A DNA stretch of 61,675 bases from Candidatus Rokubacteria bacterium 13_1_40CM_68_15 (GCA_001917585.1 MNEG01000148.1:1-61675), one strand, 5' to 3'; positions 44,223 to 60,324 are shown, counted from the first letter of the stretch. The notes: generated from the letters alone by a model not told the origin. Made by a program: numbers and translations.

Positions 44223-44275
44223 CCTATCACGTGATGATGGGCCTGGTTGCCGGTGTTCCTGCTAAGGTGAGGCGC

Positions 44276-45487
44276 ATGTCATCGCGCGCCGTGCGACGGC
44301 TCTCGACGAGTCTCGCCGTGGTCCTCGTCGCGACGGCCGCCGGCGGGGCCGAAACCGTCGAGGACTTCGTGCGACGACACTGGCGCGCGCCGCTGGCCGC
44401 GCAGGGCACGGCGCCCGCACGCTTCTCGACGCTCGAGGCGTCGCTCCGTCCGGAATCGTGCGGCACGTGCCATCCCGCGCAGTATGCCGATTGGCGGACG
44501 AGCTGGCACGCGGCGGCGACGGGGCCCGGCGTCGCCGGACAGCTCGTCGAGATGCTCGAGAGCGATCCCGGTTCGGCGCTCGGATGTCTCGGCTGTCACG
44601 CGCCGCTCGCCGAGCAGTCGCCGCTGGCGCGCAACGCGGGCCGCCTCGTTCCCAATCCCGTCTTCGACCCTGCGCTGCATCGTGAGGGCTTGCCCTGTGC
44701 CGGCTGCCACGTGCGCGGCCATCAGCGGTTCGGACCGCCACGGCGGGACGGCTCGCTCGCGAGCGTCGCGCCGCGAGAGACCCTCCCGCACGGCGGCGTC
44801 ACCCGCACGCCGGCGTTCCTGTCCGCCTCGTTCTGCCGCGGCTGCCACCAGTTCGGCACGGACGGCACGACGCTCAATGGCAAGCCTCTCGAGAACACCT
44901 ACCGAGAGTGGGAGGTGAGCCGCTTCGCGCGCGAGGGCGTGCAATGCCAGGACTGTCACATGCCCGACCGCCGGCACCTCTGGCGCGGGATTCATGACAG
45001 CGAGATGGTGCGCTCGGGGTTATCGATCGAGGTCGCAAGTCCCAGGGGCCGCGTCGGCGCCGGTGATGTTGTCAGCGTGACCCTGACCGTGCGCAGCGTG
45101 CGGGTGGGACATGCGTTCCCGACGTACGTCACGCCCAAGGTTGTGCTGAGAGCCGAGCTGGTCGCCGCCACCGGCGAGCTCATCGAAGGCAGCCGCGAGG
45201 AGCGCGTGATCGCACGAGAAATCGCGCTCGATCTCTCCCGGGAGATCTCCGACACGCGGCTGTTGCCCGGCCAGTCCGCGACGCTGCGTTTCCGCCGCCG
45301 GCTGCCCGCTGCCGGCATCTCCGCACGCCTGACCGTCGTCGTCTATCCCGACGCGTTCTACACGAGCTTCTACGAAGCGCTGCTTCAGCAGGGTGCCGGA
45401 CGAGGCGCCGCCCAGATCCGCGAGGCGCTCGAGGCCACGCGGCGCTCGCCCTTCGAAATCTTCCGCCGCGTCCTGCCGCTGTCCTAG
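44276..45487 (+). CDS. Secreted multiheme c-type cytochrome (five CxxCH)
   Basis: ATG 44276 (AAGGTGAGG SD), signal peptide. Heme motifs CGTCH, CLGCH, CAGCH, CRGCH and CQDCH. Confidence 0.75.
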   Translation: MSSRAVRRLSTSLAVVLVATAAGGAETVEDFVRRHWRAPLAAQGTAPARFSTLEASLRPESCGTCHPAQYADWRTSWHAAATGPGVAGQLVEMLESDPGSALGCLGCHAPLAEQSPLARNAGRLVPNPVFDPALHREGLPCAGCHVRGHQRFGPPRRDGSLASVAPRETLPHGGVTRTPAFLSASFCRGCHQFGTDGTTLNGKPLENTYREWEVSRFAREGVQCQDCHMPDRRHLWRGIHDSEMVRSGLSIEVASPRGRVGAGDVVSVTLTVRSVRVGHAFPTYVTPKVVLRAELVAATGELIEGSREERVIAREIALDLSREISDTRLLPGQSATLRFRRRLPAAGISARLTVVVYPDAFYTSFYEALLQQGAGRGAAQIREALEATRRSPFEIFRRVLPLS

Positions 45488-46272
45488 CCTGGCTTGCCGA
45501 GCGCCATGGTGATCGCCTGATCACTCGGCTCGTGAGCGAGGACGTGAAGGCCGGCGGCCCTGGCCTCCGCCTCCACCTCGCCGGGCTGGAAGAAGTGCTG
45601 GAACGTCACCGAGCTCATCGTGGGGCCGGCGATGGCGAGGCTGTCACCTGCTTCCGGGCGCCAGCTCGCGCCCATCAGCCGCGCGACTGCGCGCGTGAGG
45701 CGGAGCGTGCGGCGAGGCCCGGCCTGTTGGGCCGGCGCGTAGCTGAGCAGGATCCGGCCTCGCCGGGCCAGGTGTGCCGAGAGCTTCTCGAGCACCCGAA
45801 CGCGCCGCGCGGACTCCGGGATGTACGCGTAGCAGAACCAGGAGAAGACGAACACGTCGTAGCGCTGGCCCAGCTCGACCGTTTCAATGTCGCCAACGCG
45901 TACCAGCGCCTCGAGCGTTCGCTCGGTCAGGCGTTGCCGGGCGCGCTCGACGGCCTCGGGCACGAGGTCCAGACCGTCGGGGCGGTACCCCCGGTCCAGC
46001 AAGGCCAAGAGATCGCGGCCAGTGCCGCAGCCGATGAGGAGAACCCTGTCGTCTCGGTCGATGAAGCGCGCGTCCTCCCACGCGAACAGGGAGACGTCGT
46101 CAGAGGCTTCCTGCGCGATCCCGAACTGGCGCCACTCCTCGATGATGGCCGCCTGGAGAGTGGCACGATCGAGCAGTCCGGCGGCCGCGTAGCGCAGCGC
46201 GGTGGCTGCGGATTCCAGCCCGCGGCCGAGAAGGTACAGCGCGGCGAACGCTCGGCGGCGCGCCCACGACAT
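45484..46272 (-). CDS. Class I SAM-dependent methyltransferase
   Basis: 262 aa. VLLIGCGTGRDL motif I and DVFVFSWF motif. Confidence 0.8.
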   Translation of the reverse strand: MSWARRRAFAALYLLGRGLESAATALRYAAAGLLDRATLQAAIIEEWRQFGIAQEASDDVSLFAWEDARFIDRDDRVLLIGCGTGRDLLALLDRGYRPDGLDLVPEAVERARQRLTERTLEALVRVGDIETVELGQRYDVFVFSWFCYAYIPESARRVRVLEKLSAHLARRGRILLSYAPAQQAGPRRTLRLTRAVARLMGASWRPEAGDSLAIAGPTMSSVTFQHFFQPGEVEAEARAAGLHVLAHEPSDQAITMALGKPG

Positions 46273-46276
46273 TTCG

Positions 46277-47905
46277 CTAGTAGCCCAGCGCGGCGCCGTC
46301 GGCGCGTGGATCGGAGCCCCCGAGCAGGAGTCCGTCGGCGAGCGCGATGCACTGGGCGTGACCCATGAGATCGCTCCACGCCTCGACGATGCGGACGTCG
46401 TGGCCGCGCTCGCTCAAGGCCGTCGCCACGGTGTCGCCGAAGCGCGCTTCGAGGCACAGCGCCTTCGACGGCTCGCCCCACGTCCGGCCGTAGAGCCAGC
46501 GCGGGGCTTCCACGGCGGCCTGTGGACCGAGCCCGCGGTCCACCAGCCGCGTCACCAGCGCGGCCTGGGTCTGGGGTTGCCCTTCGCCCCCCATCGTCCC
46601 GTACACGAAACGCGGCCGGCCGCCGACCATATATATGGATGGGATCAGAGTGTGGGCCGTGCGCTTGCGCGGGGCCAGCGCATTGGGGTGGCGGGGGTCG
46701 AGCGAGAAGAAGGCGCCCCGATTCTGCAAGAGCACGCCGGTGTCGCCGGCCACGACCGCGGCACCGAACTCGTGATACGTGCTCTGGATCACGGACACGG
46801 CATTGCCGTCCGCGTCGGCCGTCACGATAGCGATCGTGTCGCCGTCGGCTGGCGGCCCCCCGACCGGCATCGCGGCACGGCGCGAGATGCGACCGCGGCG
46901 ACGGGCCAGCCGGGCCGCATCGAGGCAGCGCTCCACGGGCACCGCGACGACCGCCGGATCGGCGAGGTAGCGGTCGCGATCCTCGAACGCGAGCTTGGTG
47001 GCCTCGACGACGACGTGGACATAGTCGGCGTCGTCGAGGTCGGCCATGTCGAAGCCTTCGAGCAGGGCGAGGATGGCGAGGGCGGCAAAGCCCTGGGTCG
47101 GAGGCGGGAAGCTCGTCGCCTCGCCGTCGCGATAACGCACGCGGAGCGGCTCGACCCAGTCGGCGCGGTGCTCGGCGAGGTCGGCAAGCGCGAGCGGACT
47201 GCCGACGGCGCTGGCGCCGGCCACGATGCGGCGGGCGAGGTCACCGCGATAGAACGCCTCGCTGCCGCCGTCGGCCACCGCGGCCAGCGTGGCGGCGAGA
47301 TCGGTCTGCACGAACCGCCCGTCGGCGAAGCGATCCGGGTGGTACACGGGCCAGAACGAGCGCCGGATCTCGATCGGCGCCGTGGCGCCGAAGAGCGCGC
47401 TGGCGTCGGCGGTGACGCGGCGCTGACCCGGCGAGACGGCGAACCCGTCGCCTGCGTGACGCATGGCGTCCTCGAGGAGTCTCTTCCACGGAATCGGTGA
47501 GCCGAGCGCCTCGCGGCTCATCCGATGGGCGTCCCACCAGCCCGAGACGACACCGGGCACCATGATGGCGGCAGCGCCGCCGCGGACCGGCATCGCCTCG
47601 CCGTAGCGGGTGCGATAAGCGTCGGCGTCCACCTGCGCCGCCGAGCGCCCGCAGGCGTTCAGCGCGCGCAACCGTCGGGCGCGTGCATCGTAGATCAGCC
47701 AGAAGTTGTCGCCGCCGATCGAGTTCATGTGCGGGTAGACGACGGCGATCGTCGCGGCGGCGGCGATGGCGGCGTCGACGGCGTTACCTCCGGCAGCGAA
47801 GACGGCGCGTCCGGCCTCGGTGGCCAGGGCGTGGGGCGCCGCCACCATCCCGCGCGTCGCTCGCGCCTCGGGCCAGCGGGTCCCCGAAATCACGCGCGCC
47901 ATCAT
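46277..47905 (-). CDS. Gamma-glutamyltransferase family protein (no signal peptide)
   Basis: Real start MMARVISG... (ATG 47905) within ORF 46277..48643. GMVAAPHALATEAG...GGNAVDAAIA...SIGGDNF and ...RTAHTLIPS blocks. Confidence 0.85.
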   Translation of the reverse strand: MMARVISGTRWPEARATRGMVAAPHALATEAGRAVFAAGGNAVDAAIAAAATIAVVYPHMNSIGGDNFWLIYDARARRLRALNACGRSAAQVDADAYRTRYGEAMPVRGGAAAIMVPGVVSGWWDAHRMSREALGSPIPWKRLLEDAMRHAGDGFAVSPGQRRVTADASALFGATAPIEIRRSFWPVYHPDRFADGRFVQTDLAATLAAVADGGSEAFYRGDLARRIVAGASAVGSPLALADLAEHRADWVEPLRVRYRDGEATSFPPPTQGFAALAILALLEGFDMADLDDADYVHVVVEATKLAFEDRDRYLADPAVVAVPVERCLDAARLARRRGRISRRAAMPVGGPPADGDTIAIVTADADGNAVSVIQSTYHEFGAAVVAGDTGVLLQNRGAFFSLDPRHPNALAPRKRTAHTLIPSIYMVGGRPRFVYGTMGGEGQPQTQAALVTRLVDRGLGPQAAVEAPRWLYGRTWGEPSKALCLEARFGDTVATALSERGHDVRIVEAWSDLMGHAQCIALADGLLLGGSDPRADGAALGY

Positions 47906-47956
47906 AGCAGCCGCGGCGACGGCACCCGCTCCGGCGGCGTGGCGTGGGAATCGCCG

Positions 47957-48799
47957 GTGCTGGGTGACGCGATCGGCGCTCGGGTGACGGTGCAATACCG
48001 CGCCGCCGCCGACGCGACCTTCCAGACGCAGTTCACGGGTGACCTGGTGATCGTGGGGACGAAGAACGCGAGCGCGACGAACAACAAGGTGTATGGGCTG
48101 GACGCCGCCACCGGGACGGTGCAGTGGACGTTCAACCCCACGGGCGCGACGGCGGTGGACGTGGTGACGGGCTGGCCGCAGGTCGTCTACGAGACGAACC
48201 GCGTGATCGTGACGACGAAGTCCAACGGCGGCACCCAGGCGAGCCTGTGGGTGCTGTCGACGATCACGGGGAGTCTGGTCCAGAGCTGGAGCTACGGGGA
48301 CATCACGATGGGGCTCGGCGGGGCGACCAACGGCACGCTCTACGTGGGGACGGCCAGCGGCAAGCTCTACGAGTTCGATCCGGTGACGCTCGGGATGGTG
48401 TGGAGCGGGCCCTACGACACGGGGACGAACAACGTGATCGTCGGCTGGGTCTGGGAGGACTGGGAGCAACGGGGACGGCTGTACTTCAGCACCACTGATG
48501 GCCATGTGTGGGCGGTGCAGACGAGTGGCGGGACCGCGCCGCCCAGCCTGGTGTGGAAGACGACGCTGAGCGGGGCGTCGGCGCCGCTCGTCCTCGAGAG
48601 TAACGGGGCGCTCTACGTGGGCGGCAGCGACGGCAAGATCCACGAGCTGCGGCTGACCGACGGCGTGGATCAGAAGCAGGCGACGATCGGGGCGGGGGCA
48701 TCGGCCGTGGGCTCGCCCACGTGGGACGCGACCAGCGGCTGGCTCTACGCTCCCACGGCCAACGGCAAGATCTGGGCTGTGCCTGCGCCGCTCCCGTAA
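47957..48799 (+). CDS. PQQ-like/BamB-like beta-propeller repeat protein, apparently lacking its N-terminus
   Basis: Repeats such as NNKVYGLDAATGTVQW, GKLYEFDPVTLGMVW and GKIHELRLTDG. No signal peptide. Only in-frame GTGs (47939, 47957, 47984) lie downstream of the divergent GGT start. Confidence 0.5.
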   Translation: MLGDAIGARVTVQYRAAADATFQTQFTGDLVIVGTKNASATNNKVYGLDAATGTVQWTFNPTGATAVDVVTGWPQVVYETNRVIVTTKSNGGTQASLWVLSTITGSLVQSWSYGDITMGLGGATNGTLYVGTASGKLYEFDPVTLGMVWSGPYDTGTNNVIVGWVWEDWEQRGRLYFSTTDGHVWAVQTSGGTAPPSLVWKTTLSGASAPLVLESNGALYVGGSDGKIHELRLTDGVDQKQATIGAGASAVGSPTWDATSGWLYAPTANGKIWAVPAPLP

Positions 48800-48809
48800 C
48801 TCCGGCGGA

Positions 48810-49211
48810 TCAGCGCCCCACGAGCTTGGCGATCGTCTCGCCGAGGTAGAACGGATCGACCGGCTTCGCCAGGAATGCGTCGAACCCGACGTCGGCGGCC
48901 TGAATCACGCTGTACCGATTGCGGTGTGCGGTGAGCGCGACCGTCGGGATGGGACCACCCTGCTGACGCCGCTTCAGCTGATCGACCAGCCACAGACCAT
49001 CCTCGTTCGGCATCGCGAGATCGCTGACGATGGCGTGGGGACGCATCGTCAGGGCGACGGCCAGGGCCTCGCGAGCGTTCGCTGCCGTTCGAACGATCGC
49101 GCCGTACCGCCTGAGCGCGATACTGAAGATCTCGAGCGAATCCGCATTGTCGTCGACGACGAGCACCACGATGCCGGTGAGATTCGGGGAATACGCGAGT
49201 GCTGTAGTCAT
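48810..49211 (-). CDS. Stand-alone response-regulator receiver domain protein
   Basis: Start MTTALAY... (ATG 49211, GGAG SD). VLVVDDNADS...IVSDLAMPNEDG...ALTAH...FLAKP. Confidence 0.8.
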   Translation of the reverse strand: MTTALAYSPNLTGIVVLVVDDNADSLEIFSIALRRYGAIVRTAANAREALAVALTMRPHAIVSDLAMPNEDGLWLVDQLKRRQQGGPIPTVALTAHRNRYSVIQAADVGFDAFLAKPVDPFYLGETIAKLVGR

Positions 49212-49386
49212 GATGACTCCTGGTGCGGAACAGAATCCGCTTCGATGTGCCGAGCGCCGCGGACGAACACGTGAAGCGTCCGAGGCTGGGGTTGCATCTC
49301 GTACCGACCCGGAGACGAGCGCATCGTTCGTCCAACGTGCGCGTGCCTCGGTCAAAAGACAATCAGAAAAGATTTTCCCAGATTTG

Positions 49387-49422
49387 CCCCGGGAAACATT
49401 TCCGGGGATCCCCCACTTGACA
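49387..49422 (+). promoter_or_regulatory. Imperfect palindrome next to a perfect TTGACA, upstream of the PqqD-rSAM operon
   Basis: CCCCGGGAAA-CA-TTTCCGGGG (49387-49407) followed by TTGACA (49417-49422). No convincing -10 found. Confidence 0.25.
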
Positions 49423-49456
49423 CCGTCTGCATTTTCGAGGGACAACCGTCGTCCAG

Positions 49457-49762
49457 ATGGGCGACGTCACGGGGCTGGACGCCACCTATGCGAGGGATCC
49501 CGACTTCGTCTCCCGCCGGATCGCCGACGAGGTGATCGTGTTGCCCATACGCAAGAACCTCGGGGATCTCGAGTCCATCTACACGTTGAACGAGGTGGGG
49601 GCGCGCATCTGGGAGCTCTTCGACGGACGGCGCAGCCTTCGCGAGATTCGCGACATTCTCACGAGCGAGTACGAGGTGACGGCGCAGGCGGCGACGGGGG
49701 ACCTGGCCATGTTCGTCGAGCACCTCACCGCGATCGGAGCCCTGACGGCGATGGAGCGATGA
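49457..49762 (+). CDS. PqqD-family peptide chaperone (RiPP recognition element)
   Basis: 101 aa. ...VSRRIADEVIVLP...ESIYTLNEVGARIWELFDGRRSLREIRDILTSEYEV...DLAMFVEHL is the canonical PqqD pattern. ATGA overlap with the next gene. Confidence 0.8.
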   Translation: MGDVTGLDATYARDPDFVSRRIADEVIVLPIRKNLGDLESIYTLNEVGARIWELFDGRRSLREIRDILTSEYEVTAQAATGDLAMFVEHLTAIGALTAMER

Positions 49763-50916
49763 CCCCGGCGGCCGTTCCCGCGATCGGCTACAGCCAGCTC
49801 GTCGAGCGGATCAAGCACGGCGACGGCATGGCGCACGTGCCGCTCGAGGGCAGCTGGGAGCTGACGTACCGTTGCAACCTCGCCTGCACCCACTGCTGGG
49901 TCAATCTTCCAGCCGGTGACCGCCGGGCCCGCCAGCGCGAGCTCACCGGTGACGAGATCGATCGCATCGCCGGAGAGATCGTGGACGCCGGGGGGTTGTG
50001 GCTGCTCCTGACCGGTGGTGAGATCTTCCTCCGCCCCGACTTCCTCGACATCTATCGACGGCTCAAGCGACGCGGTTTGCTCCTCACGCTCTACACGAAC
50101 GGAACGATGATCACCGAGCGGACGGCCGACCTGCTCGCGGAATACCCGCCGAGCCTCGTCGAGATCTCGCTCTACGGCATCACGCCCGGCACGTATGCGG
50201 CAGTCACCGAGGTGCCGGCCCTCGAGCGCTGTCTGCGCGGTATCCGCCTGCTTCGCGATCGCGACGTCAAGATCAGGCTCAAGAGCGTGGTGACGACCGC
50301 GAACTACGACGAGTTCCTGGACATCGCGGCCTGGGTCAAGCGCGAGTTCGGTCTGCGCTTCCGGTACGACCCGAACATCAATTTCCGCAAGATCGAGGGG
50401 CGGGAGGGAACGGCCCCGGCCAGGGTCCGGGTGCCGGCCTCGCAGGTCGTGGCCCTGGACCAGGCCCTGGACGCCGAGACCGATGATCTGCGCGGGACGT
50501 ACCAGGACATGGTCGACAAGGCCCGGCAGGGGATCGATATCCGACGCGGCAGCGGGTACGTTTTCGACTGCGGCGCCGGCCTGAACGCGTATCACATCGA
50601 CCCGTACGGCCGCCTGACCTCCTGCATGATGGTGCCGTCGATCGGCTACGACCTGCGCGAGGGCTCGTTTCGCGAGGGCTGGGACTCCTTCCTCGAGCGC
50701 GTCGTGTACCTCAAGAAGACACGGACCACGCGGTGCGACTCCTGCGCCATCTCCGGTAATTGCACGGGGTGCCCGGGGTGGTCGCTGCTCGAGCACGGCG
50801 ACCTCGAGGAACCGGTGGACTACGTCTGCGACGTCAATCACGGTCGCGCCCAGGCCTTCGGGGCGGGGGAGCTGATTTCCACGATACGCATGAAAGGAGC
50901 GCCGGTCCATGGATAA
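49759..50916 (+). CDS. Radical SAM / SPASM-domain peptide maturase
   Basis: 385 aa. CNLACTHC (Cx3Cx2C), LTGGEIFLRPD, and C-terminal auxiliary-cluster cysteines (FDCGAG..., SCMM, RCDSCAISGNCTGCPG). Confidence 0.9.
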   Translation: MTPAAVPAIGYSQLVERIKHGDGMAHVPLEGSWELTYRCNLACTHCWVNLPAGDRRARQRELTGDEIDRIAGEIVDAGGLWLLLTGGEIFLRPDFLDIYRRLKRRGLLLTLYTNGTMITERTADLLAEYPPSLVEISLYGITPGTYAAVTEVPALERCLRGIRLLRDRDVKIRLKSVVTTANYDEFLDIAAWVKREFGLRFRYDPNINFRKIEGREGTAPARVRVPASQVVALDQALDAETDDLRGTYQDMVDKARQGIDIRRGSGYVFDCGAGLNAYHIDPYGRLTSCMMVPSIGYDLREGSFREGWDSFLERVVYLKKTRTTRCDSCAISGNCTGCPGWSLLEHGDLEEPVDYVCDVNHGRAQAFGAGELISTIRMKGAPVHG

Positions 50917-51094
50917 GAGCGACGAGGCCCCGCGCAGGCCCTACACGCCCCCCACGGTCGAGCGGGTGGACATCGTCGAGAGCGAGGTCGCGCTCCAGAC
51001 GTGCAAGAAGAGCACCACGAGTACGATCAACACGAAGAACACGATCGGCAACTTCGTCTGCCCGAGCAACTGCAAGAACCGCTCGAACACCTGA
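50909..51094 (+). CDS. Candidate RiPP precursor peptide (61 aa)
   Basis: AAAGGAG SD 10 nt upstream of ATG 50909. 8-nt overlap with the rSAM stop. 59 of 61 codons end in G/C. Acidic leader MDKSDEAPRRPYTPPTVERVDIVESEVALQ plus basic core TCKKSTTSTINTKNTIGNFVCPSNCKNRSNT (3 Cys). Confidence 0.65.
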   Translation: MDKSDEAPRRPYTPPTVERVDIVESEVALQTCKKSTTSTINTKNTIGNFVCPSNCKNRSNT

Positions 51095-51960
51095 TCCCGG
51101 GAGCCGGCCTCACCGTCGGCCGATCGACGGTCGCCATCACGAACGCCGAGCGATCCGGCGACTGGGTCGTCGGTCGCCTCCACCGGCAGTTCCTGCACGT
51201 CGGTGGCGATCCGACCCTCGATCTCTCCGTCGCCCCGCTCGATCGCGGCGTCCCCGCTGACGGGGCCGTCGCCTTCGATTCCGGTCTGGGCTGGCGCGTC
51301 GTGGAGACCACCGACGGCTGGTCGTTCGTCGGCCTCAGGGCGAGTCGCGCCTATCACGCCATCGCCGTCGACCGGGAGTGGCGCACCGGCACCGTGTTTC
51401 TTCCGGCGCGCCTGCGGGCCGGCATCGCCTGTCCTTTTCCGGTCGCGTATCCGTGGGAGATGCTGCTCTTCACCTCGCTGCTCGCTCACGGCCACGGTGC
51501 GATCGTGCATGCGACTGCCGTTGTCGTCGACGGCGCGGGCTGGGTCTTCGCGGGCCCGCATCGCGCCGGGAAGAGCACGCTGGCGCGACTCTTCAAGACG
51601 CGCCCGGATGTCACCGTGCTCAACGACGACCGCGTGGCAGTGCGACACGTGCTCGGTCGATGGCACGTCTTCGGGACGCCATGGGCGGGAAGCGCGCGGC
51701 TCAACGCTGATGCATCAGCGCCGATCCGCGGCGTGTGTCTGATCCGACACGGACGCGCGACGAGACCGACGCGTCTGGCGCCGGGTCGGGCCGCCGCGGC
51801 ACTCCTGGCGCGCTGCCTCCACCCGTACTGGGAGCGCGCAGCCGCCTCGAAGCTGCTCGACACGATCGCGCGACTCGTCACCGAAGTTCCCTGCTACGAC
51901 TTTCCCTTTGCGCCCCGCCTTGGCTCGGTGCTTCGTGGACTCCAAGCGGCTGAAAGATAA
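51001..51960 (+). CDS. HPr kinase/phosphorylase-like (HprK-related) kinase
   Basis: LLAHGHGAIVHATAVVVDGAGWVFAGPHRAGKSTLARLF (P-loop) and DDRV...HVFGTPWAG resemble the HprK C-terminal kinase fold. Start uncertain: GTG 51001 overlaps the precursor ORF by 94 nt, otherwise only CTG 51091. Confidence 0.7.
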   Translation: MQEEHHEYDQHEEHDRQLRLPEQLQEPLEHLIPGAGLTVGRSTVAITNAERSGDWVVGRLHRQFLHVGGDPTLDLSVAPLDRGVPADGAVAFDSGLGWRVVETTDGWSFVGLRASRAYHAIAVDREWRTGTVFLPARLRAGIACPFPVAYPWEMLLFTSLLAHGHGAIVHATAVVVDGAGWVFAGPHRAGKSTLARLFKTRPDVTVLNDDRVAVRHVLGRWHVFGTPWAGSARLNADASAPIRGVCLIRHGRATRPTRLAPGRAAAALLARCLHPYWERAAASKLLDTIARLVTEVPCYDFPFAPRLGSVLRGLQAAER

Positions 51961-51981
51961 AGCCCTGAGGAGTCCGCATCA

Positions 51982-54900
51982 TTGACACTTCGACGGCGCG
52001 ATCTGATTTTCGAGGAGTTCTGTAAGGAGACCCTCGCTCGGGGCCTTCCGTACTGGTGGCGCCCGCGTGGTCTCAGCATGGCGCCGACGATCGATGACGG
52101 CGACCGCGTGCTGGTCGCGCCCGCTGCCCCCGAGAGCCTGAAGCCCGGTGACATCGTGAAGTTCCGGGTCGATGGCGCCTTCGTGATGCATCGTCTGGTG
52201 CGCTGCGATCGTGGCGAGGACGGAGTGCGGACGTTCGTCTTCAGGGGCGACAACGCTCCTGCCGACGATCCGCCGGTGACGGCCCTAGCGATCATCGGCC
52301 GCGCCGTCGCCGTCGAGCGCGATGGCCGCCAGCGACGGCTGGATTCGAGATTCGAGCTCTGGAGGGGACGACTGAAGATCATTCGACGCGCTTTGATCGA
52401 ACGATGGCCTGACCGGCAGGGCGGCGCTCTGGTTCTCATCGCCGCTCTGGCGGCTTTGCTCTCCCTCGGTACCTCCGCCGCTGCCGCGAAAGACTCCAGA
52501 GACTCGAGCCGATTCCAGGGACTCCAAGGACGCGAAGGGCAAGCCGCCGACGCCATCGGTCCCGACGCTCTCGGTGGTCGGGACGCCGCACGTCGGCCGC
52601 CATCCGTTCGGCGTGGCAATCGATTCGCGCCGGGCACTCGCCGTGCTCGCCAATCGCAACGACCGGACGGTGTCGGTCGTCGATCTGCTGAGCGCCACCA
52701 CGCGCGGGACGATCCTGGTGGGCCGCGGACCCGTCGGCGTCGCGATCCACGCCACCGGCGTCGCGTTCGTCACGCTCGCCCACGAAAACGCCGTGGCCGT
52801 CATCGACCGGCGCTCGGCACGCTGATTCGCAAGATACCGGTCGGTCTCCGTCCCACCGGCGTCGCCGTGGCCGGCAACGTCGCCGGCGTCTTGGCCGTGA
52901 CCGACCAGAACGACGGTGTGGTGTTCTTCCTCGACATCAACCATCCGGAAAGCCCGGTCTTCCTGCCGTCCGTCACATTGCCCGGAGGTGGTCGCGGTCG
53001 CGACGACGATGACCGCCGCCGTGGCCCCCGCGCCCGCCCGGTGGGAGTCGCCTTCGACTACGGGCCGGGGGTGAACCAGGTCGTGGTCGCCGACGAGAAC
53101 CGCAACGCGGTCCACGTCCTCAAGCTCACGGGCCAGGCCACGCTCGACAGCATCCGCTCCGTGGGCATGGGCAAGCGCCCTCAGGCGATCGCCGTCAACC
53201 CGGGCCGCGATTACGCCTTGGTCACGAGCGAGAAGGACGACGTGTTCGGCTTCACGCCGTCGTCGGGTGAAGTGACCGGCCGGGCCGAAGCCGGAAAGCG
53301 CCCACGGAGCGTCGCCATCGATCCAGAGACGTGCCGGGCCGTAGTGACGAACTCGAAGAGCAATTCCGCCTCCGTGCTGGTGGGGCCGTGCAACGTTCTC
53401 AAGATCTTCTTCCTTTCGCCGTCGACGGCGAAGGTCGGATCCGGCGCGTTTACGCTGGAGATCATCGGCAGCGGCTTCGCCGCCAACGCCCAGGTCAACT
53501 TCGGAACGCTCACGCTGGCGCCGAGCTCGGTGACTCCAGGGCGCATCCAGGTCACGGCCCCGCGGCCGCGGTGGTGACGCTCGGCAGCGTGCTCGTGACC
53601 GTGACGAATCCTCCAGCCCACGTCGGCGACCCGCCGACGGTGTCGACCACGCTCCCATTCGTCGTCAACACCGATCCGCTCAAGCTCTCTTCGGTCACCC
53701 CGAGTACCAGCGTGGCCGACGGCCTCGACCTGGCGCTCACGCTGACCGGACAGCGCATCAAGGCAGGCGCCACGGTCTTCTTCGGCGCGCCGAGCGCCAG
53801 CGGCTGCGGCGTGGAGATCGAGACCGCGTCGTCCGGCGTGCCGAGCAGCACCGTACTGCAGGCGGTCGTCCCGGGGATTCGGGCCGACGTGACCGGCGTC
53901 CACGGGACGGACCTGACCTTGCGCGGCGGCGCCTACTGCGTGCAGGTCGTCAACCCCGACGGCGAGCGGTCGAACAACGCTGCCGGTGACCATCACCAAC
54001 CCGAAGCCGACGCTCTCCAACCTGTTCCCGAGCGCGGCCGACCAGGGTAGCCCCACGCTGACGATGCTGTTGAACGGCGACGGCTTCGTCGGGACGATCG
54101 CGGGTGCTCAGATCCTTCCCACCACGGTCGTGAAGTTCAACAACGTTCCGGTCGCCGCGGTCCCAAACCAGCTCCATCCGATGGATCAGATGGTGATCAC
54201 GATTCCCAGCGCGCTGCTCGTCGGCGCCGGTGTCTTCACCGTGAGCGTGGAGAATCCAGCCATCAACGGCGCCGGCGGTGGGACCGCGTCGGCAACGTTC
54301 ACCGTCCGGACCCTGAACGCGATCCTGCCCACCAAGGTCGTGGCGATTCCCGAGGGCCAGCCCGATCACGTGGCGATGGTCGGCCATCGTCTCGGCGCCG
54401 TGGCCGTGTCCAACCAGGGTGTGGTCCGCCTCCTCGATCTGTCCAGGCTGAATTTCGACCACCACGCCCGATGCCGGCGTCGTGCTCGATCCACCCATCG
54501 TGCTGGCGGAGCCGCGCATCGGTGCGACCGGCGACATCGACGGTGATCCGGTGGCCGGGATCCTGGCCGTCGCGCTGCAGCGGGACGATGCGGTGGCCGT
54601 CGTGACGCTCCAGGGCGTCGATCCCATCACGTACGCTCCGTGTCCATGCCGGAGGACGCTGGCGCTCGGGCTCGGCTCGAGTCCTTACGGTATCGCCCTC
54701 GACGTCGCCAACGATCGCCTGGTCGTCGTGAACCAGGGGCTTCCGCCCGGTGAGCCCACCATGCCGCTCGGGTTTCCCGGCATTCTGCCGAGCCTCTCGG
54801 TGATCCGGCTCTCCTCGCTCACCGAGATCGTCAGGATCCCGCTGTACTCGGCGTTCGACCCCGACGGTCTGTTATTCTTCGCCCCGGCCCTGGTGGCGAT

Positions 54901-55477
54901 CGATCCCGGACTCAACCTGGCGGTCGTCATGGACCAGGGCGATCCCTATGGGACCAACGAGGGTGGAGTGATGGTCGTCAACCTCATGACCAACCGGGTG
55001 AGCGCGTGGTTCTCGGCGGGCACGGCCTTCTTCACGTCCGGCCTGGCGGTGGACCCGGTTCGTCATCTCGCCTTCGTCGGCAACGCCCTCGGCGACCCGA
55101 ATCAGGTTCCCGCGGACGGGCAGCCGTACCTCGGCTCGCTGACGCGCATCAACTTGAACGATCTCGCCCAGCCGCCGTTGACGGTCACGACGAACGAGTT
55201 TCCGAACGGCGTGGCCGTCGATCCGGGGACGGTGTCGACCAGGCACTCGGCGATCGTCGTGAACACGCAGAGCAACGATCTCACGGCGGTGAACGTCGAC
55301 AACCCTGCGCTGACCACCACGCTGCCCTTCGCAGCCTCGGGCGGTAACCTCGCCCTCGACATCGCCTGGCAGCCGGACGCCGTCCTCGGCCTGATCTTGA
55401 CCGGCTCCGCGATCCCTGCAGAGCTCGGCGGCAACAACGCGTTCGTCATCGGCCTCTCACCTTCGCGCCTTCCCTGA
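51982..55477 (+). pseudogene. S24/S26-type peptidase + TM + YVTN beta-propeller + IPT/TIG repeats + second propeller-like region, one long gene broken by five frame changes
   Basis: TTG 51982 with GAGGAG SD. GLSMAPTIDDGDRVLV...FRGDN peptidase block and TM helix GGALVLIAALAALLSLG. Homology then continues through frames mod1 > mod2 (~52491-52511) > mod1 (~52815) > mod0 (~53559) > mod1 (~53975) > mod2 (~54460), to stop 55477. Confidence 0.65.
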
Positions 55478-55568
55478 CGCCGCTGCGCTCATCGCCCTGG
55501 TCGGCGCCTATGCCGCCGGCCAGGGTGAGCGCTGGCAGCCGCCGGCCGATCTCGCTTCGCTGATCGCG

Positions 55569-56609
55569 GTGGCCGCGCGCCACCAGCTCACGCCGCTCTT
55601 GGGTACGGTGCTCGCGGACCGCCGGGGGGTCGACCCTGGTGCCGCGGCCGCGTTGCAGCAAGAGCGCTACTACGTCGTGCGTCGTCAGGCCCAGCTGGCC
55701 GCGCTGGCGGGGCCGTACCTGGATGCGTTGCGCGCGCGCGAGATCCCGGTGATCGTCCTCAAGGGCGGCATCCTGGCCGAGCGTTACTACCGCCGCGCCG
55801 ACGACCGACCGATGCACGACGTCGATCTCCTCGTCCGTCCCGGCGACGTGGAGAAAGCGCTGGCGGCGGCAACGGACGTTGGCCTCGAACGCTTCGACGA
55901 CGCTCACACGCTGGACTTCGACCTCCGGTTCGACACGAAGACTGTCCTGACGCGCCACCGCGACGACCTTCGCCAGCCGTCGCTCGACCTCCATTGGGCG
56001 CTCATGCGCGACTGGCTCGGCGCGAGCGGCAATGCCTGGCTCGAGACCGCGTGGCAGCGCTCGCAGCCGGCCACGTTCGCGGGGCGACCTGTGCGCTCGC
56101 TCGCGCCGCCGGATCTCCTCGTGCACGTGGTCCTCCATCTGGGCATCCAGCACGCCTTCGAGGGACTGTTGTGGTTCTGCGACGTCGCGCTGATCGCCGC
56201 GGCGCTGAACGATCGAGCCGACTGGGAAGAGGCAATCCGCGGCGCCCGCCGCCTCGGCTTCGGAGCGGCACTGGCGGTGACGCTCGACCTGCTCGACGAC
56301 CTCTTCGATATTCGCACGCCCGTGGAAGTTCGCCGCCGCCTGGGGCGGCGCTCCCCGCGCTACGCCTTGGCCCGCCATCTCGTCCGGAGCCACATCGCGC
56401 GGCTCGAGCCCCTGAGCCATCTCGAATATCTTCTGCCGCTCCTGCTCATGGACACGAGCCGGAAGGCGCTCGGCACGGCCTGGCGGCGAGTGGTACCGTC
56501 GCGTACGTGGCTCGAGCTGCGTTATCCGGAGACCCGCTGGCCCATGCACTACGTCCGCCACGGCCTGGCGACGGCGCGTTTCGCCGTCCGTACCGTGCGG
56601 GGCCGCTGA
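55569..56609 (+). CDS. Uncharacterised nucleotidyltransferase family protein (NTP_transf_5-like)
   Basis: IPVIVLKGGILAERYY...RPMHDVDLLVRPGDVEKA...LDLHWAL pattern of this family. First canonical start is GTG 55569, but the frame is open and protein-like from 55401. Confidence 0.7.
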   Translation: MAARHQLTPLLGTVLADRRGVDPGAAAALQQERYYVVRRQAQLAALAGPYLDALRAREIPVIVLKGGILAERYYRRADDRPMHDVDLLVRPGDVEKALAAATDVGLERFDDAHTLDFDLRFDTKTVLTRHRDDLRQPSLDLHWALMRDWLGASGNAWLETAWQRSQPATFAGRPVRSLAPPDLLVHVVLHLGIQHAFEGLLWFCDVALIAAALNDRADWEEAIRGARRLGFGAALAVTLDLLDDLFDIRTPVEVRRRLGRRSPRYALARHLVRSHIARLEPLSHLEYLLPLLLMDTSRKALGTAWRRVVPSRTWLELRYPETRWPMHYVRHGLATARFAVRTVRGR

Positions 56610-57388
56610 CGCGCGCCGCTCTCACCGTCGCGCTCATCGCCGCTCTCGCGCTCGGCGGCCGCTCGTCCACGGCATCCGCCGTCGCTCAGTCCGAGGTCCC
56701 GACGTACGGCGTCGAGATCGTCGGCAACCGGCCGCACGACCCCGAGGCGTTCACGCAAGGCCTCGTCTTCCACGAGGGTGTACTCTACGAGAGCACCGGG
56801 CTCCACGGCCGATCGAGCGTACGGAAGGTCGACGTCGAGACGGGCCGCGTCCTGGCCCGACGGAGCGTGCCCCGCCAGCACTTTGCCGAGGGCCTCACGA
56901 TCTTCCAGGGCCGGGTCGTTCAGCTCACGTGGCAATCACAGAAGGGCTTCGTCTACGACCTCGGCTTCCGCCTGACGCGCGAGTTTGCCTACGTCGGCGA
57001 GGGCTGGGGACTGACCCACGACGGCACGTCGCTCATCATGAGCGACGGCACCGCGCGTCTCCGCTTTCTCGATCCGGCCACGTTCGCCGTCCGCCGCGTG
57101 CTCGACGTCAGCGATGCCGGCCGTCCTGTCGAGTCGCTCAACGAGCTCGAGCTCGTGCGTGGCGAGATCTACGCGAACGTCTGGCCCACCGACTGGATCG
57201 TGCGGATCGACCCCGCCTCGGGGCGCGTCGTCGGACGCGTCGATCTCACCGGGCTCCTGGCGCCGCACGAGCGACGCGGCAACGAGGACGTGGCCAACGG
57301 CATTGCCTACGACGCGTCCGCCGATCGCCTGTTCCTCACCGGCAAGCTGTGGCCGCGACTCTACGAGGTCCGTCTCCGCCGGCGGTAA
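56507..57388 (+). CDS. Glutaminyl-peptide cyclotransferase (plant/bacterial beta-propeller type), secreted
   Basis: YGVEIVGNRPHDPEAFTQGLVFHEGVLYESTGLHGRSSVRKVD..., WGLTHDG, NELELVRGEIYANVW and ANGIAYD are typical of the family. The signal peptide begins at 56606 (CTG). The only canonical upstream start is GTG 56507. Confidence 0.75.
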   Translation: MARAALSGDPLAHALRPPRPGDGAFRRPYRAGPLTRAALTVALIAALALGGRSSTASAVAQSEVPTYGVEIVGNRPHDPEAFTQGLVFHEGVLYESTGLHGRSSVRKVDVETGRVLARRSVPRQHFAEGLTIFQGRVVQLTWQSQKGFVYDLGFRLTREFAYVGEGWGLTHDGTSLIMSDGTARLRFLDPATFAVRRVLDVSDAGRPVESLNELELVRGEIYANVWPTDWIVRIDPASGRVVGRVDLTGLLAPHERRGNEDVANGIAYDASADRLFLTGKLWPRLYEVRLRRR

Positions 57389-57394
57389 CTTAAA

Positions 57395-58441
57395 GTGGTA
57401 GTATCCCGGCCCGTGCTCGACACGACCATCACGGGGAGCCTTCCCAAGCCCGCCTGGCTGGCCGCCCCGGAGACACTGTGGGCGCCGTGGCGTCTGCCCT
57501 CTGAAACGCTGGCCGAGGGCCAGCGCGATGCGGTCCTGATCGCGCTCGAGCTCCAGGAAGCGGCTGGCATCGACATCGTGACCGACGGCGAGCAGTCGCG
57601 CCAGCACTTCGTCCACGGCTTTCTCGCCCGGATCGACGGCGTCGACTTCGCCAGGCGCGTGACCATCGGCATCCGGGCCGACCGCTACAAGGCCGAGGTG
57701 CCGACGGTGACCGGGCCGCTCCGGCGGCGCGAGCCCGTCCATCTCGACGAGGTGCGCTGGGCCCGCGCGCACACCGAGCGCCGCCTGAAATTCACGCTCC
57801 CGGGCCCCATGACGATCGTCGATACCCTGGCCGACGAGTATTTCCGTGACCGTCGCGCGCTGGCCATGGAATTCGCTCGCGTGCTCAACGAGGAGATGCG
57901 TGACCTGGAGGCGGCCGGGCTCGACGTCGTCCAGCTCGACGAGCCGGCGTTCAACGTCTACATGGACGATGTGGCCGCCTGGGGCATCGAAGCGCTCCAT
58001 CGCGCCGTCGACGGCCTGCGCTGTACCACCGCCGTCCACATCTGTTACGGCTACGGCATCAAGGCCAACGTCGACTGGAAGCGGACACTCGGGAGCGAGT
58101 GGCGGCAGTACGAGCAGACGTTCCCGCTGCTCGCCAACAGCCGCATCGACCAGATCTCCCTCGAGTGCCGGAACTCCCGGGTGCCGCTCGAGCTGCTCGA
58201 CCTGCTCCGAGGCAAGGACGTGCTCGTGGGGTGCATCGACGTGGCGACTCACGACGTCGAGGGAGCGGAGGACGTCGCCGCGACCATCCGGGCCGCCATG
58301 AAGTACGTCCCTCCCGAGCGGCTGTTTCCGTGCACGAACTGTGGCATGGTGCCGTTGCCGCGCGAGGTCGCTCGGCGAAAGCTGCTCGCGCTCGGGGCCG
58401 GCGCGCGCCTGGTTCGCCGCGAGCTTCAGGGCCACGAATGA
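57395..58441 (+). CDS. Cobalamin-independent methionine synthase (MetE C-terminal)-like protein, paralog of 5396..6454
   Basis: TTITGSLPKPAWL, VTDGEQSRQHF, LDEPAF, HICYGYG and CTNCGM. Start GTG 57395 or 57413. Confidence 0.8.
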   Translation: MVVSRPVLDTTITGSLPKPAWLAAPETLWAPWRLPSETLAEGQRDAVLIALELQEAAGIDIVTDGEQSRQHFVHGFLARIDGVDFARRVTIGIRADRYKAEVPTVTGPLRRREPVHLDEVRWARAHTERRLKFTLPGPMTIVDTLADEYFRDRRALAMEFARVLNEEMRDLEAAGLDVVQLDEPAFNVYMDDVAAWGIEALHRAVDGLRCTTAVHICYGYGIKANVDWKRTLGSEWRQYEQTFPLLANSRIDQISLECRNSRVPLELLDLLRGKDVLVGCIDVATHDVEGAEDVAATIRAAMKYVPPERLFPCTNCGMVPLPREVARRKLLALGAGARLVRRELQGHE

Positions 58442-58468
58442 GCCTCGGCATCGCATGATGACGCTGGC

Positions 58469-58972
58469 GTGCGCTGGCTGATCGACGGCTACAACGTCAT
58501 CCGTCGTGACGCCGACCTGAGCGCGGCCGAGGCGGGAGGCCTTCACGTCGGCCGGGCGGCCCTGCTGAGACTCGTGGCCGGCGCGGCCCGCCGCCATTCC
58601 GATCACTTCACCGTCGTGTTCGACGGCGCTCCCGGTGCCGGGCCTACCGAGAGCCCGGGGCAAGTGGAGGTCCTCTTCTCGCGGCCGCCGGAGAAAGCCG
58701 ACGACGTTCTGATCCGCCTCGCGCGACAGTCGGGCGACGGCGACGCGGTCGTGAGCGACGATCGCACCGTCGCCGATGCAGCGCGGCGCGCGCGGTGCGC
58801 CGCGATCGGCACCGCCGACTTCGTCGCTGCCCTCAGCGGCGGCGGCGACGGCGGGGACGAGAAAGACGAGGACGAGGATGACGCCGACGAGCCGAAGCAC
58901 GGCAATCCGCGACGGCTCTCGAAGGACGCGCGGGCGGCTCAGCGCGCGTTGCGCCGACTGCGGAGGCGCTGA
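58469..58972 (+). CDS. NYN/YacP-like (DUF901) nuclease-fold protein with acidic tail
   Basis: WLIDGYNVIRR..., FTVVFDG, EKADDVLIRL and VVSDDRTV are YacP-type motifs. GTG start. Confidence 0.7.
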   Translation: MRWLIDGYNVIRRDADLSAAEAGGLHVGRAALLRLVAGAARRHSDHFTVVFDGAPGAGPTESPGQVEVLFSRPPEKADDVLIRLARQSGDGDAVVSDDRTVADAARRARCAAIGTADFVAALSGGGDGGDEKDEDEDDADEPKHGNPRRLSKDARAAQRALRRLRRR

Positions 58973-58981
58973 CCGCGCAGA

Positions 58982-59746
58982 TCACCCGATCCGCCGCTCG
59001 CGGAGTTTCCACCAGGCCAGGAGCGCTCCCGAAAGCAGTCGAGTGCCCGCGAGGTAGGTGGAGAACTCGGCGGGGCCAGGCTCGCCGAGTACTGCGATGC
59101 GATTGAGCTGGTAGGGATCGTCTCGTGGGCCCACGCCGCCCAGGTCGATGGTGAAGGCCATCGCGAACCCGGCCCGTCGCACCACCGTCGCCACCACGGA
59201 ATTCCGGGCGCCGTACGGATAGCAGAACGCTTCGATCGCTCGTCCGAGCGCGTCCTCGAGCACTCGCTTGGAGCCGATCACCTCACGCTCCAGTGCCTGC
59301 GGCGAGAGCGTGGTCAAGTCGGGATGCGTGTGCGTGTGACAGCCGATCGTGTGGCCGGCCACGGCGAGCGCCTCGAGATCACGTCGGCTGATCGAGCTGT
59401 CGGGCTCGTCGAGGTCTCCGGAGATTGGAAAGAACGTCGCGGACAATTTCAGTGCGTCGAGCACCGGGACGGCGTTCTCGATCTGATCACCATACCCGCC
59501 GTCGAACGTCAGCAGCACCGCCGGGGTCGGGCAGGGCGCCGAGCCACTCAACCAGTCGGTGAGCTGGCGCAGGGAGATCACGGTGTAGTCCCCTTCGGCG
59601 AGAATGTCCATCTGGGCGGCAAAACGCGCCCGACTCCGGACGGAGTGGTAGCAGAGCACACGCACGTCGGCGCCGGCGAAGGACACGGAGAGCTCGCGCA
59701 GCGCGCGCCACGCCCCCATGCCGGCATGGTATCCAAATGTTGACAC
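58982..59746 (-). CDS. Polysaccharide deacetylase family protein
   Basis: 254 aa. LTFDGGYGDQ (TFDDG-like) and GCHTHTHPDL motifs. Confidence 0.8.
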   Translation of the reverse strand: MSTFGYHAGMGAWRALRELSVSFAGADVRVLCYHSVRSRARFAAQMDILAEGDYTVISLRQLTDWLSGSAPCPTPAVLLTFDGGYGDQIENAVPVLDALKLSATFFPISGDLDEPDSSISRRDLEALAVAGHTIGCHTHTHPDLTTLSPQALEREVIGSKRVLEDALGRAIEAFCYPYGARNSVVATVVRRAGFAMAFTIDLGGVGPRDDPYQLNRIAVLGEPGPAEFSTYLAGTRLLSGALLAWWKLRERRIG

Positions 59747-59775
59747 CGGGGTGGGCGGGATGACAGCGTTGGCGC

Positions 59776-60324
59776 ATGCGCGCCTTGTCGCGCAGTGCCC
59801 GGCTCCTCTCGCTGCTCGTTCTGCTCGCCGCGGTTGCCAGCATCGCGGGCGCGCAGCCCACGTCGCTCGACGGTGCCGTCGTCCGCGTCGTCGATGGCGA
59901 CACCATCCACGTCCGGCTCGCCGACCGTGTCGAGAAGGTGCGCTACATCGGTGTCAACACCCCCGAGGTCCATCACCCTCGAAAGGGTGAGGAACCGGGC
60001 GGGCGCGAGGCGGCCGAGGTCAATCGCGAGCTCGTCGAGAACAAGCGTGTGCGTCTGGAGCTCGACGTTCAGTCTCGCGACCGCTACGGTCGGTTGCTCG
60101 CCTACGTCTGGGTGTCAGCGGGAGCCGAGCGAGCCGACGGGGCTGGGCCGCCCCAGTCGCGACGTGATGAGTCAGAAAATTGGATCATGGTCAACGCCGA
60201 GCTGGTGCGTCTGGGCTACGCCCAGGTGATGACGGTTCCGCCCAACGTGCGCTACCAGACCCTGTTCTTGAAGCTGCAGCGCGACGCCCGAGAGTCGGGA
60301 CGGGGGCTCTGGAAGGGCGTCTAA
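59776..60324 (+). CDS. Secreted thermonuclease (SNase-like) family protein
   Basis: Signal peptide. VVDGDTIHV, VRYIGVNTPE, DRYGRLLAYVW and NAELVRLGYA motifs. Confidence 0.8.
   Translation: MRALSRSARLLSLLVLLAAVASIAGAQPTSLDGAVVRVVDGDTIHVRLADRVEKVRYIGVNTPEVHHPRKGEEPGGREAAEVNRELVENKRVRLELDVQSRDRYGRLLAYVWVSAGAERADGAGPPQSRRDESENWIMVNAELVRLGYAQVMTVPPNVRYQTLFLKLQRDARESGRGLWKGV

Follow-up and report, generated by a model that had tools for sequence, protein, structure and literature searches.

A radical-SAM peptide operon from Candidatus Rokubacteria with a putative HprK-like kinase and an NTP_transf_5 nucleotidyltransferase

Operon structure and the precursor family

The stretch of DNA analysed here, referred to as the window, is a 61,675-nucleotide contig (MNEG01000148.1, assembly GCA_001917585.1) of Candidatus Rokubacteria bacterium 13_1_40CM_68_15. 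Within it we examined the interval 51001–56609, which encodes a putative HPr-kinase-like (HprK-like) P-loop kinase and a nucleotidyltransferase (NTase) of the NTP_transf_5 family, and which makes up the downstream portion of one operon on the plus strand, running from 49457 to approximately 57388. Judging from its genes, the interval appears to be the downstream half of an operon for the maturation of a peptide that is made by the ribosome and modified after translation (RiPP), representing a widespread, uncharacterised family. The reading that we favor, with a probability of about 0.55, is that the kinase phosphorylates the C-terminal threonine (Thr61) of a peptide modified by a radical S-adenosylmethionine (radical-SAM) enzyme, that the NTase extends this phosphate, and that a protease encoded between them removes the leader. 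The genes of the operon are as follows.

49457–49762, plus strand: discrete PqqD-type peptide-binding protein (RiPP recognition element, RRE), 101 amino acids (aa); Pfam PqqD, E-value 8.8e-16
49759–50916, plus strand: radical-SAM enzyme with a SPASM-like C-terminal cysteine cluster, 385 aa; Pfam Radical_SAM, E-value 8e-22
50909–51094, plus strand: precursor peptide, 61 aa; homologous open reading frames (ORFs) at the same position in all loci
51001–51960, conserved part from about 51100, plus strand: predicted HprK/PEPCK-fold P-loop kinase, ScmC-like; family profile, AF2/Foldseek and catalytic residues
51982–52450, ORF continuing to 53577, plus strand: archaeal/ER-type signal-peptidase-I-like S24 protease domain; Pfam Peptidase_S24, E-value 1.7e-8
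52520–55477, plus strand: beta-propeller/IPT-type repeat-protein gene, frame-disrupted; tblastn with intact orthologues, NCBIfam CoaZ_rpt_PGGG and beta-propeller matches
55569–56609, plus strand: NTP_transf_5 nucleotidyltransferase, 346 aa; Pfam PF14907, E-value 4.2e-42
56606–57388, plus strand: glutaminyl cyclase (Glu_cyclase_2), start codon uncertain; Pfam, E-value 8.3e-95

The PqqD stop and radical-SAM start codons overlap (ATGA), and the precursor ATG, which has an AAAGGAG ribosome-binding site upstream, overlaps the radical-SAM stop. The radical-SAM context proposed in the initial annotation of this DNA is thus present immediately upstream, with the PqqD and radical-SAM genes directly preceding that of the precursor. 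The 61-residue precursor itself (MDKSDEAPRRPYTPPTVERVDIVESEVALQTCKKSTTSTINTKNTIGNFVCPSNCKNRSNT) has a leader with a YTPP motif, conforming to YxxP, a core with three cysteines, and a C-terminal threonine; it ends in CKNRSNT, with T61 terminal and S59 at position −3, in agreement with the ending NRSNT noted initially.

Forty-five loci were retrieved by exact-protein look-up and from GTDB genomes and metagenomes, sorted into 13 lineages, and scored by tblastn with the window proteins. The best match among the GTDB genomes is a metagenome-assembled genome (MAG) of Candidatus Rokuibacteriota (83% identity), MAGs of Omnitrophica are also included, and the family is represented so far only in environmental DNA. 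The initial annotation had named a lack of co-occurrence with radical-SAM and PqqD genes elsewhere among the outcomes that would refute its reading, and this outcome is clearly contradicted: the kinase is accompanied by both, together with a homologous YxxP, three-cysteine precursor, in all 13 lineages, and in nearly all loci the kinase gene lies directly 3′ of that of the precursor. In the clade to which the window belongs the gene order is PqqD, radical-SAM enzyme, precursor, kinase, S24 protease, repeat protein, NTase and glutaminyl cyclase, and two other Rokubacteria-type clades have the same order without the cyclase. Ten more distant lineages, with kinase identities of 24–40%, always retain the PqqD, radical-SAM, small peptide and kinase genes, and a minimal cassette (loci L003–L005) consists of these four alone; the S24 protease adjoins the kinase in at least 10 of the 13 lineages. 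The recurrence of this gene order in 45 loci is not a chance arrangement. In conservation the kinase equals the radical-SAM enzyme, and it thus belongs to the core of the system and not to the optional tailoring proposed initially; the NTase is found in only six of the 13 lineages.

The 25 distinct precursors from the 13 lineages share several regularities. Each has the motif YxxPx[V/I/L] in the leader, and in 24 the leader tyrosine is followed by the first cysteine at a distance of exactly 20 residues. Twenty-four have three cysteines, in 24 the first cysteine is followed by lysine (CK), and in 23 the last cysteine lies 5–6 residues from the C-terminus. Beyond YxxPx[VIL] the leader reads ..V.L..(D/E)E(V/A)AL..CK, and there is no conserved serine near the start of the core. 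The C-terminal residue is serine or threonine in 24 of the 25 precursors and in 12 of the 13 lineages (binomial P ~2e-6 against a background of 27.7% Ser+Thr in the cores, counting lineages and not sequences). Among the Rokubacteria-type clades, including that of the window, it is threonine in all but one variant; in the other lineages it is serine, commonly in the form Gly-Ser. This terminal position is the only one at which a hydroxyl is conserved across the cores: that of L003 has just two serines, both near the C-terminus (QSRHPGS), and that of L006 has a single internal serine. We regard this regularity as the main new, comparative support for the C-terminal modification predicted in the initial annotation. 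The nearly universal terminal Ser/Thr makes C-terminal phosphorylation a concrete, testable prediction, in which the terminal hydroxyl is the putative acceptor.

The kinase and its partner enzymes

The kinase ORF, beginning at 51001 or at about 51091, extends to 51960, and the P-loop GPHRAGKST reported for it initially is located at 51553–51579, with the motifs VHATA (containing His140) at 51505–51519 and LNDDR at 51619–51633. In an alignment of 25 sequences H140, G155, G160, K161, T163 and D179 are invariant, D180 is conserved in at least 90%, and R181 is nearly invariant. H140, K161, D179 and D180 correspond to the His-Lys-Asp-Asp set of the lasso-peptide kinases, which is essential by mutagenesis (reviewed in PMC9266682); the two aspartates also match the D158/D159 pair of the pseudomycoidin kinase PsmK, of which the D158A/D159A mutant is dead (PMC6993621).

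Comparisons of the whole protein point in the same general direction. The window kinase alone has no match in Pfam, and none to PF07475. Members of its family match the NCBIfam models HprK_rel_B (25 of 25), HprK_rel_A (24 of 25), ScmC (22 of 25) and true HPr kinase (13 of 25), as well as Hpr_kinase_C in Pfam (18 of 25), with all of these HprK-type matches below threshold. A family profile compared with the Protein Data Bank (PDB) matches Lactobacillus casei HprK/P (1jb1, E-value 7.4e-4) over a region spanning the histidine, the P-loop and the aspartate, and also matches ATP-dependent phosphoenolpyruvate carboxykinase (PEPCK); a single-sequence PDB search with P0076 returned only P-loop noise and weak HprK matches. 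An AF2 model of the kinase (pLDDT 93.3) gives Foldseek matches to ATP-dependent PEPCK (1xkv, E-value 1.6e-7) and HprK (1knx, E-value 6.8e-5). From sequence and predicted structure, then, the designation "HprK-like kinase" appears correct for fold and catalytic machinery at the level of the superfamily, with no curated equivalog; the label used in the initial annotation stands in that broad sense, and every curated HprK-type cut-off lies above the scores obtained.

Close homologues of the window kinase carry a precomputed Pfam label, PF27840 "ScmC". A database search yielded 37 homologues, almost all metagenomic and annotated as hypothetical, and a profile search at least 657; a full scan of 1.84 billion representatives gave 2,724 representative kinases at an E-value of 1e-30 or lower. 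The kinase also occurs naturally fused to other domains, namely to an S24/S26 protease domain in P0137 (463 aa) and to a class I methyltransferase in P0163 (652 aa).

The only canonical in-frame start of the kinase gene is GTG at 51001, which overlaps 94 nt of the precursor gene and would add 30 residues that are an out-of-frame reading of the precursor core. Orthologous kinases start with GTG or ATG directly after the precursor stop (VAGLTVG or MAGLTVG), and we therefore take 51001 as a formal start only. At the corresponding position the window has GGA, and translation of its kinase may depend on a non-canonical start or on coupling.

The enzymes encoded upstream are of types associated with peptide maturation. 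The top NCBIfam match of the PqqD protein is the lasso PqqD chaperone NF033536 (E-value 1.2e-8, under its cut-off). The radical-SAM enzyme combines a CX3CX2C motif (CNLACTHC, 49873–49896) with a C-terminal auxiliary-cluster region of seven cysteines, including CDSCAISGNCTGC at 50734–50772, as is characteristic of radical-SAM/SPASM RiPP maturases. It has no match to the Pfam SPASM model, and it aligns end-to-end with the NCBIfam models for the mycofactocin (MftC), AlbA, PapB and GeoRSP maturases, all curated radical-SAM maturase families scoring under their cut-offs.

Downstream of the kinase, the S24 protease, on which the initial annotation is silent, is probably the leader peptidase. It scores above the Pfam S24 cut-off, and matches the archaeal signal peptidase I model TIGR02228 (sigpep_I_arch) with an E-value of 1.1e-10 and 41.6 bits, the cut-off being 51.85. 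The motifs GLSMAPT (52069–52089), MHRLV (52186–52200) and RGDNAPADD (52243–52269) contain the SMxPT, HR and GDN signatures, and a hydrophobic, likely membrane-spanning segment follows the protease domain. In L012 the repeat protein is fused to the protease. Fusions of the protease with a GNAT acetyltransferase occur in two distant lineages (L006, 10900–11829; L041, 7116–8132), and the acetyltransferase could acetylate the N-terminus freed by removal of the leader.

Assignment of the NTase to NTP_transf_5, made initially from the pattern MHDVDLLV...LDLHWAL, is upheld: the two motifs are at 55812–55835 and 55983–56003, and the Pfam score is 144.9 bits, compared with a gathering threshold of 31.2. 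Among seven cassette-linked homologues K65, G66, R80, P81, D84, D86, W143, H190, H195 and D205 are invariant, as is the catalytic motif KG...RPxxDxD, in which DxD is D84/D86. In pseudomycoidin the phosphoserine receives one or two hexoses from the enzyme PsmN, whose D134A/D136A variant is inactive (PMC6993621).

The glutaminyl cyclase has a signal-peptide-like N-terminus and no canonical start near 56606. Only one clade has its gene directly after that of the NTase, and the precursors of that clade carry a glutamine two residues before the first cysteine. In the window this is Gln30 (50996–50998), within EVAL-Q-TCKK; elsewhere the position is occupied by A, G, T, I, S or V, and the cyclase is missing. 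The coincidence, confined to a single clade, weakly suggests cleavage of the leader before the glutamine and a pyroglutamate cap.

Relationships with known peptide systems

By gene content, the closest characterised system appears to be that of the linear polyphosphorylated peptides (LPPs), rather than the lasso clusters. LPPs are encoded by lppA-K-B-S-D-N clusters of Bacillota and were described by Popov et al. in May 2026 (PMC13381572). Their leader motif is YxxPxVLxHQxIxFETxxS, the kinase LppK places up to four phosphates on core Ser3, and the protease LppS cleaves the leader, cutting unphosphorylated precursor poorly (PMC13381572). Among 152 kinase-category domain hits around LPP and lasso loci, 67 are to TIGR04249 (ScmC), 65 to TIGR04352 and 11 to TIGR04355, and the NTases there are labelled NTP_transf_5 (PMC13381572, Supplementary Data 2). 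These are the same three kinase models that the window kinase family matches. The window also has the LPP combination of a discrete PqqD RRE, an HprK-like kinase and an NTP_transf_5 protein, together with a YxxPx[V/I/L] leader motif and a protease resembling signal peptidase I of the archaeal type (with a TIGR02228 score below the cut-off in the window); some of its relatives share a polysaccharide-locus neighborhood with the LPP clusters. There are, however, clear differences. The LPP domain tables contain no "Radical_SAM" entries, whereas a radical-SAM enzyme is present in all 13 lineages here; LPP products are described as linear, whereas these cores have three conserved cysteines and a C-terminal Ser/Thr. 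The window family lacks both HQxIxFET in the leader and the Ser3 acceptor, the MsbA-type exporter of LPP clusters has no counterpart in the window, and LPPs are stated to be restricted to Bacillota, whereas Rokubacteria, Omnitrophica and further uncultivated lineages carry the window family. On account of the invariable radical-SAM enzyme, the different leader and core consensus, the lack of an MsbA exporter and the different phylum, we rejected membership of the LPP family.

The phosphorylated lasso peptides, paeninodin (PadeK/ThcoK) and pseudomycoidin (PsmK/PsmN), provide a second comparison. Their HprK-superfamily kinases have the His-Lys-Asp-Asp set and act on the linear precursor, PsmN is an "uncharacterised NTP transferase" that adds hexose to the phosphate, comparable to the NTP_transf_5 protein here, and their clusters encode a PqqD-type B1 protein and a precursor with a [Y/W]xxP leader. 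In the kinase-associated lasso precursors the C-terminal serine is "extremely conserved" and is the phosphorylation site (PMC9266682), which parallels the C-terminal Ser/Thr of the present family; the differences are that a radical-SAM enzyme and a serine protease replace the lasso cyclase and the B2 cysteine protease, and that the window's clade has a terminal threonine and not serine. The gene context of an HprK-type RiPP kinase is present throughout, with a PqqD gene and a YxxP precursor in 13 of 13 lineages and a Ser/Thr ending in 24 of 25 precursors, for which the role of acceptor is putative. A lasso cluster as such was rejected: all ORFs in 43362–60324 were assigned, and they include neither an asparagine-synthase-like cyclase nor a transglutaminase-like B2 protease, in keeping with the radical-SAM rather than lasso scaffold that the initial annotation had foreseen. 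The analogy with lasso kinases drawn initially is supported by the catalytic residues and the conserved C-terminal hydroxyl; the nearest characterised gene set is that of the LPPs.

The SynChlorMet (SCM) cassette (ScmC TIGR04249, ScmD TIGR04248, ScmE/ScmF TIGR04250/04251) also pairs a PqqD homologue and radical-SAM/SPASM enzymes with an ScmC-type protein. To our knowledge its TIGRFAMs description assigns neither a precursor nor a function, and no paper on the cassette was found in our literature search. SCM has two radical-SAM genes and the window one, and true membership was rejected from the scores for ScmC (12.1 against 125 bits), ScmD (25.5 against 100), ScmE (70 against 400) and ScmF (56.4 against 400). 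The radical-SAM/SPASM thioether peptides (sactipeptides and ranthipeptides) resemble the window system in having a PqqD-type RRE, a radical-SAM enzyme with auxiliary clusters, and a cysteine-containing core; we found no described member with an obligatory HprK-type kinase, a signal-peptidase-like leader protease or an NTP_transf_5 partner.

Few natural products of peptide type are phosphorylated. Those listed in a paper of November 2025 are only microcin C, paeninodin, pseudomycoidin, phospeptin, salivaricin 10 and the paper's own cyanobactins, with no mention of a radical-SAM class; the LPPs were added in 2026. Full-text literature searches likewise found no description of a peptide class combining a radical-SAM enzyme with an HprK-type kinase. 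All of the parts of the present system are of a known kind, and its kinase–NTase–protease module has two characterised relatives. What is new, as far as we have found, is the obligatory combination of this lasso/LPP module with radical-SAM chemistry, the precursor family, and the spread through uncultivated phyla, in a family that is abundant in environmental DNA and has no named member.

Proposed pathway, alternatives and genomic setting

From the gene identities, catalytic residues, operon structure, co-occurrence and precursor regularities set out above, we infer the following pathway. The PqqD protein would bind the YxxP leader and present the peptide, and the radical-SAM enzyme would crosslink the core cysteines, most likely as thioethers. 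The kinase would then transfer one or more phosphates from ATP to a hydroxyl of the core, most probably that of Thr61, since this is the only hydroxyl position conserved across the family and its use would parallel that of the paeninodin and pseudomycoidin kinases. The NTase, with PsmN as the model, would add a hexose or a nucleotide-derived group to the phosphate, and the signal-peptidase-like protease, with LppS as the model, would cut the leader close to the first cysteine. Two cleavage sites may be considered. Cleavage directly before Cys32 would fit the small-residue preference of signal peptidases and LppS, the preceding residue being small (T/S/A/G) in most lineages and valine in three variants of the window's clade; the other candidate site is before Gln30, and in this clade the glutaminyl cyclase may cap the new N-terminal glutamine.

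Several observations weigh against this reading. The window kinase fails the curated thresholds: its NCBIfam matches to HprK_rel_B, HprK_rel_A and ScmC are weak, with E-values of 2e-3, 3e-3 and 0.09. For these models (TIGR04352, TIGR04355 and TIGR04249 in NCBIfam) it scores 17.2, 16.5 and 12.1 bits, where 200, 200 and 125 would be needed. The known acceptors of HPr kinase, the lasso kinases and LppK are serines, whereas the window's clade has threonine; LppK, moreover, acts on core Ser3 and not on the C-terminus, and rejects threonine in place of that serine (PMC13381572). The precursor of L038 (7723–7872), the only one in the family without a terminal Ser/Thr, ends in GACPFP and has CW in place of CK, yet its locus keeps the kinase and protease genes. 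The last cysteine stands at a fixed 5–6 residues from the C-terminus, and the terminal Ser/Thr could be its crosslink partner instead. With regard to the later steps, the NTase is missing from seven of the 13 lineages, and in the LPP system deletion of lppN had no effect and LppN activity was undetectable in a heterologous host (PMC13381572). Among the ORFs of more than 150 aa across the whole 61.7-kb window, none has the LSGGQ-type signature of an ABC exporter; ABC genes are present near the cassette in some relatives (L037, L006, L041). Finally, the repeat-protein gene inside the operon is frameshifted, passing through frames 2/1/3/1/2 with at least four frameshifts. The switches were placed at about 52816, 53570–53640, 53977 and 54450 by tblastn of orthologues that are intact single ORFs (L008, 5220–8249; L030, 9384–12470; L012, 8871–12530). 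A metagenome contig that is 100% identical (L035) carries the same frameshifts, and the gene is either a pseudogene or the product of a shared assembly error.

Three alternatives to phosphorylation and extension at Thr61 were weighed. In one, which we consider unlikely although it merits attention, the kinase acts as in the LPPs, phosphorylating a Ser or Thr early in the core (such as one within KKSTTST after the first cysteine) and thereby licensing leader cleavage, with the terminal Ser/Thr kept for some other reason. The gene set, with its TIGR02228-like protease, PqqD protein, ScmC-type kinase, NTP_transf_5 protein and YxxP leader, is nearer to that of the LPPs than to that of lasso peptides, LppK acts on Ser3 and precursor without phosphate is cleaved poorly, a kinase–S24 fusion protein exists, and the window core is rich in Ser/Thr right after Cys-Lys. 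No fixed Ser/Thr is found near the core start across lineages, however; L003 has none before QSRHPGS and L006 only its one internal serine, so that the universal hydroxyl is the C-terminal one alone. That terminal residue might instead be the partner of the last cysteine, joined to it either in a thioether made by the radical-SAM enzyme or through phosphorylation, elimination and cysteine addition in a lanthionine-like manner, with no phosphate left in the product. Both routes have precedents, in that radical-SAM/SPASM enzymes make Cys-to-Thr thioethers in some sactipeptides and ranthipeptides and lanthipeptide synthetases dehydrate by way of phospho-Ser/Thr. The spacing of 5–6 residues in 23 of the 25 precursors and the sub-threshold likeness of the radical-SAM enzyme to the thioether-forming maturases AlbA, PapB and StsB are consistent with such a link, but the cassette has no conserved gene for a lyase or cyclase, the phosphates left by characterised HprK-type RiPP kinases are stable mono- or polyphosphates, and the NTase, where present, would by analogy with PsmN need a handle such as a phosphate. 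We hold this to be rather improbable.

It is very unlikely that the kinase-like and NTase proteins serve a neighboring small-molecule or polysaccharide metabolism and not the peptide. The small-molecule kinase PEPCK does give the best structural matches, the cassettes of L006, L037 and L043 are bordered by genes for the export and synthesis of polysaccharides, and an NTase is lacking in seven lineages. Set against this, the kinase gene comes right after the precursor in nearly all loci and is kept in 13 of 13 lineages, even in the four-gene loci L003–L005; its catalytic residues are those of proven peptide kinases; and a kinase–S24 fusion protein is known.

Should phosphorylation at Thr61 and its extension by the NTase prove correct, it would give a function to the "ScmC"-type proteins, which have so far been hypothetical proteins beside radical-SAM genes, and may help to define what NTP_transf_5 enzymes do chemically, since those of the two systems studied so far proved inactive or gave ambiguous results. 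As a more tentative proposal, about which we have considerable doubt, the family (at least 2,700 kinase clusters at 50% identity) could constitute a large undescribed RiPP class from uncultivated phyla and include the first phosphorylated radical-SAM peptides, with the phosphate a handle for an NTP_transf_5-borne sugar or nucleotide that might link the peptide to cell-surface polymers or to giant secreted repeat proteins.

The operon is flanked upstream by genes for a response regulator, a BamB-like propeller protein, GGT and a methyltransferase, and downstream by MetE-like, NYN-domain and SNase genes. These are unrelated genes of housekeeping types, several of which adjoin the cassette in two relatives (L001 and L002) as well; the cluster was therefore delimited at 49457 and approximately 57388. 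No RNA family from Rfam was detected within 48500–58000.

In other loci the cassette has neighbors of two further kinds. Genes for Poly_export, Wzz/GNVR and Wzy proteins and glycosyltransferases flank it in L006 (7199–8113 and 14750–20763), L037 (11240–13801) and L043 (12363–14912). This setting, absent from the window itself, resembles the capsular-polysaccharide surroundings described for the LPP and paeninodin clusters. Very large secreted repeat proteins adjoin the cassette in otherwise unrelated lineages: proteins with Peptidase_C25 and CLIPPER repeats in L037 (1–6400), L038 (9418–13959), L043 (1–5326), L044 (1–5268) and L042 (from 13463), and a giant Big_1/Invasin/PQQ_2 protein in L001 (384–5105). 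In the Rokubacteria-type loci this position is held by the beta-propeller/IPT protein, and it is possible that the giant repeat proteins are functionally linked to the cassette as target, carrier or part of the processing.

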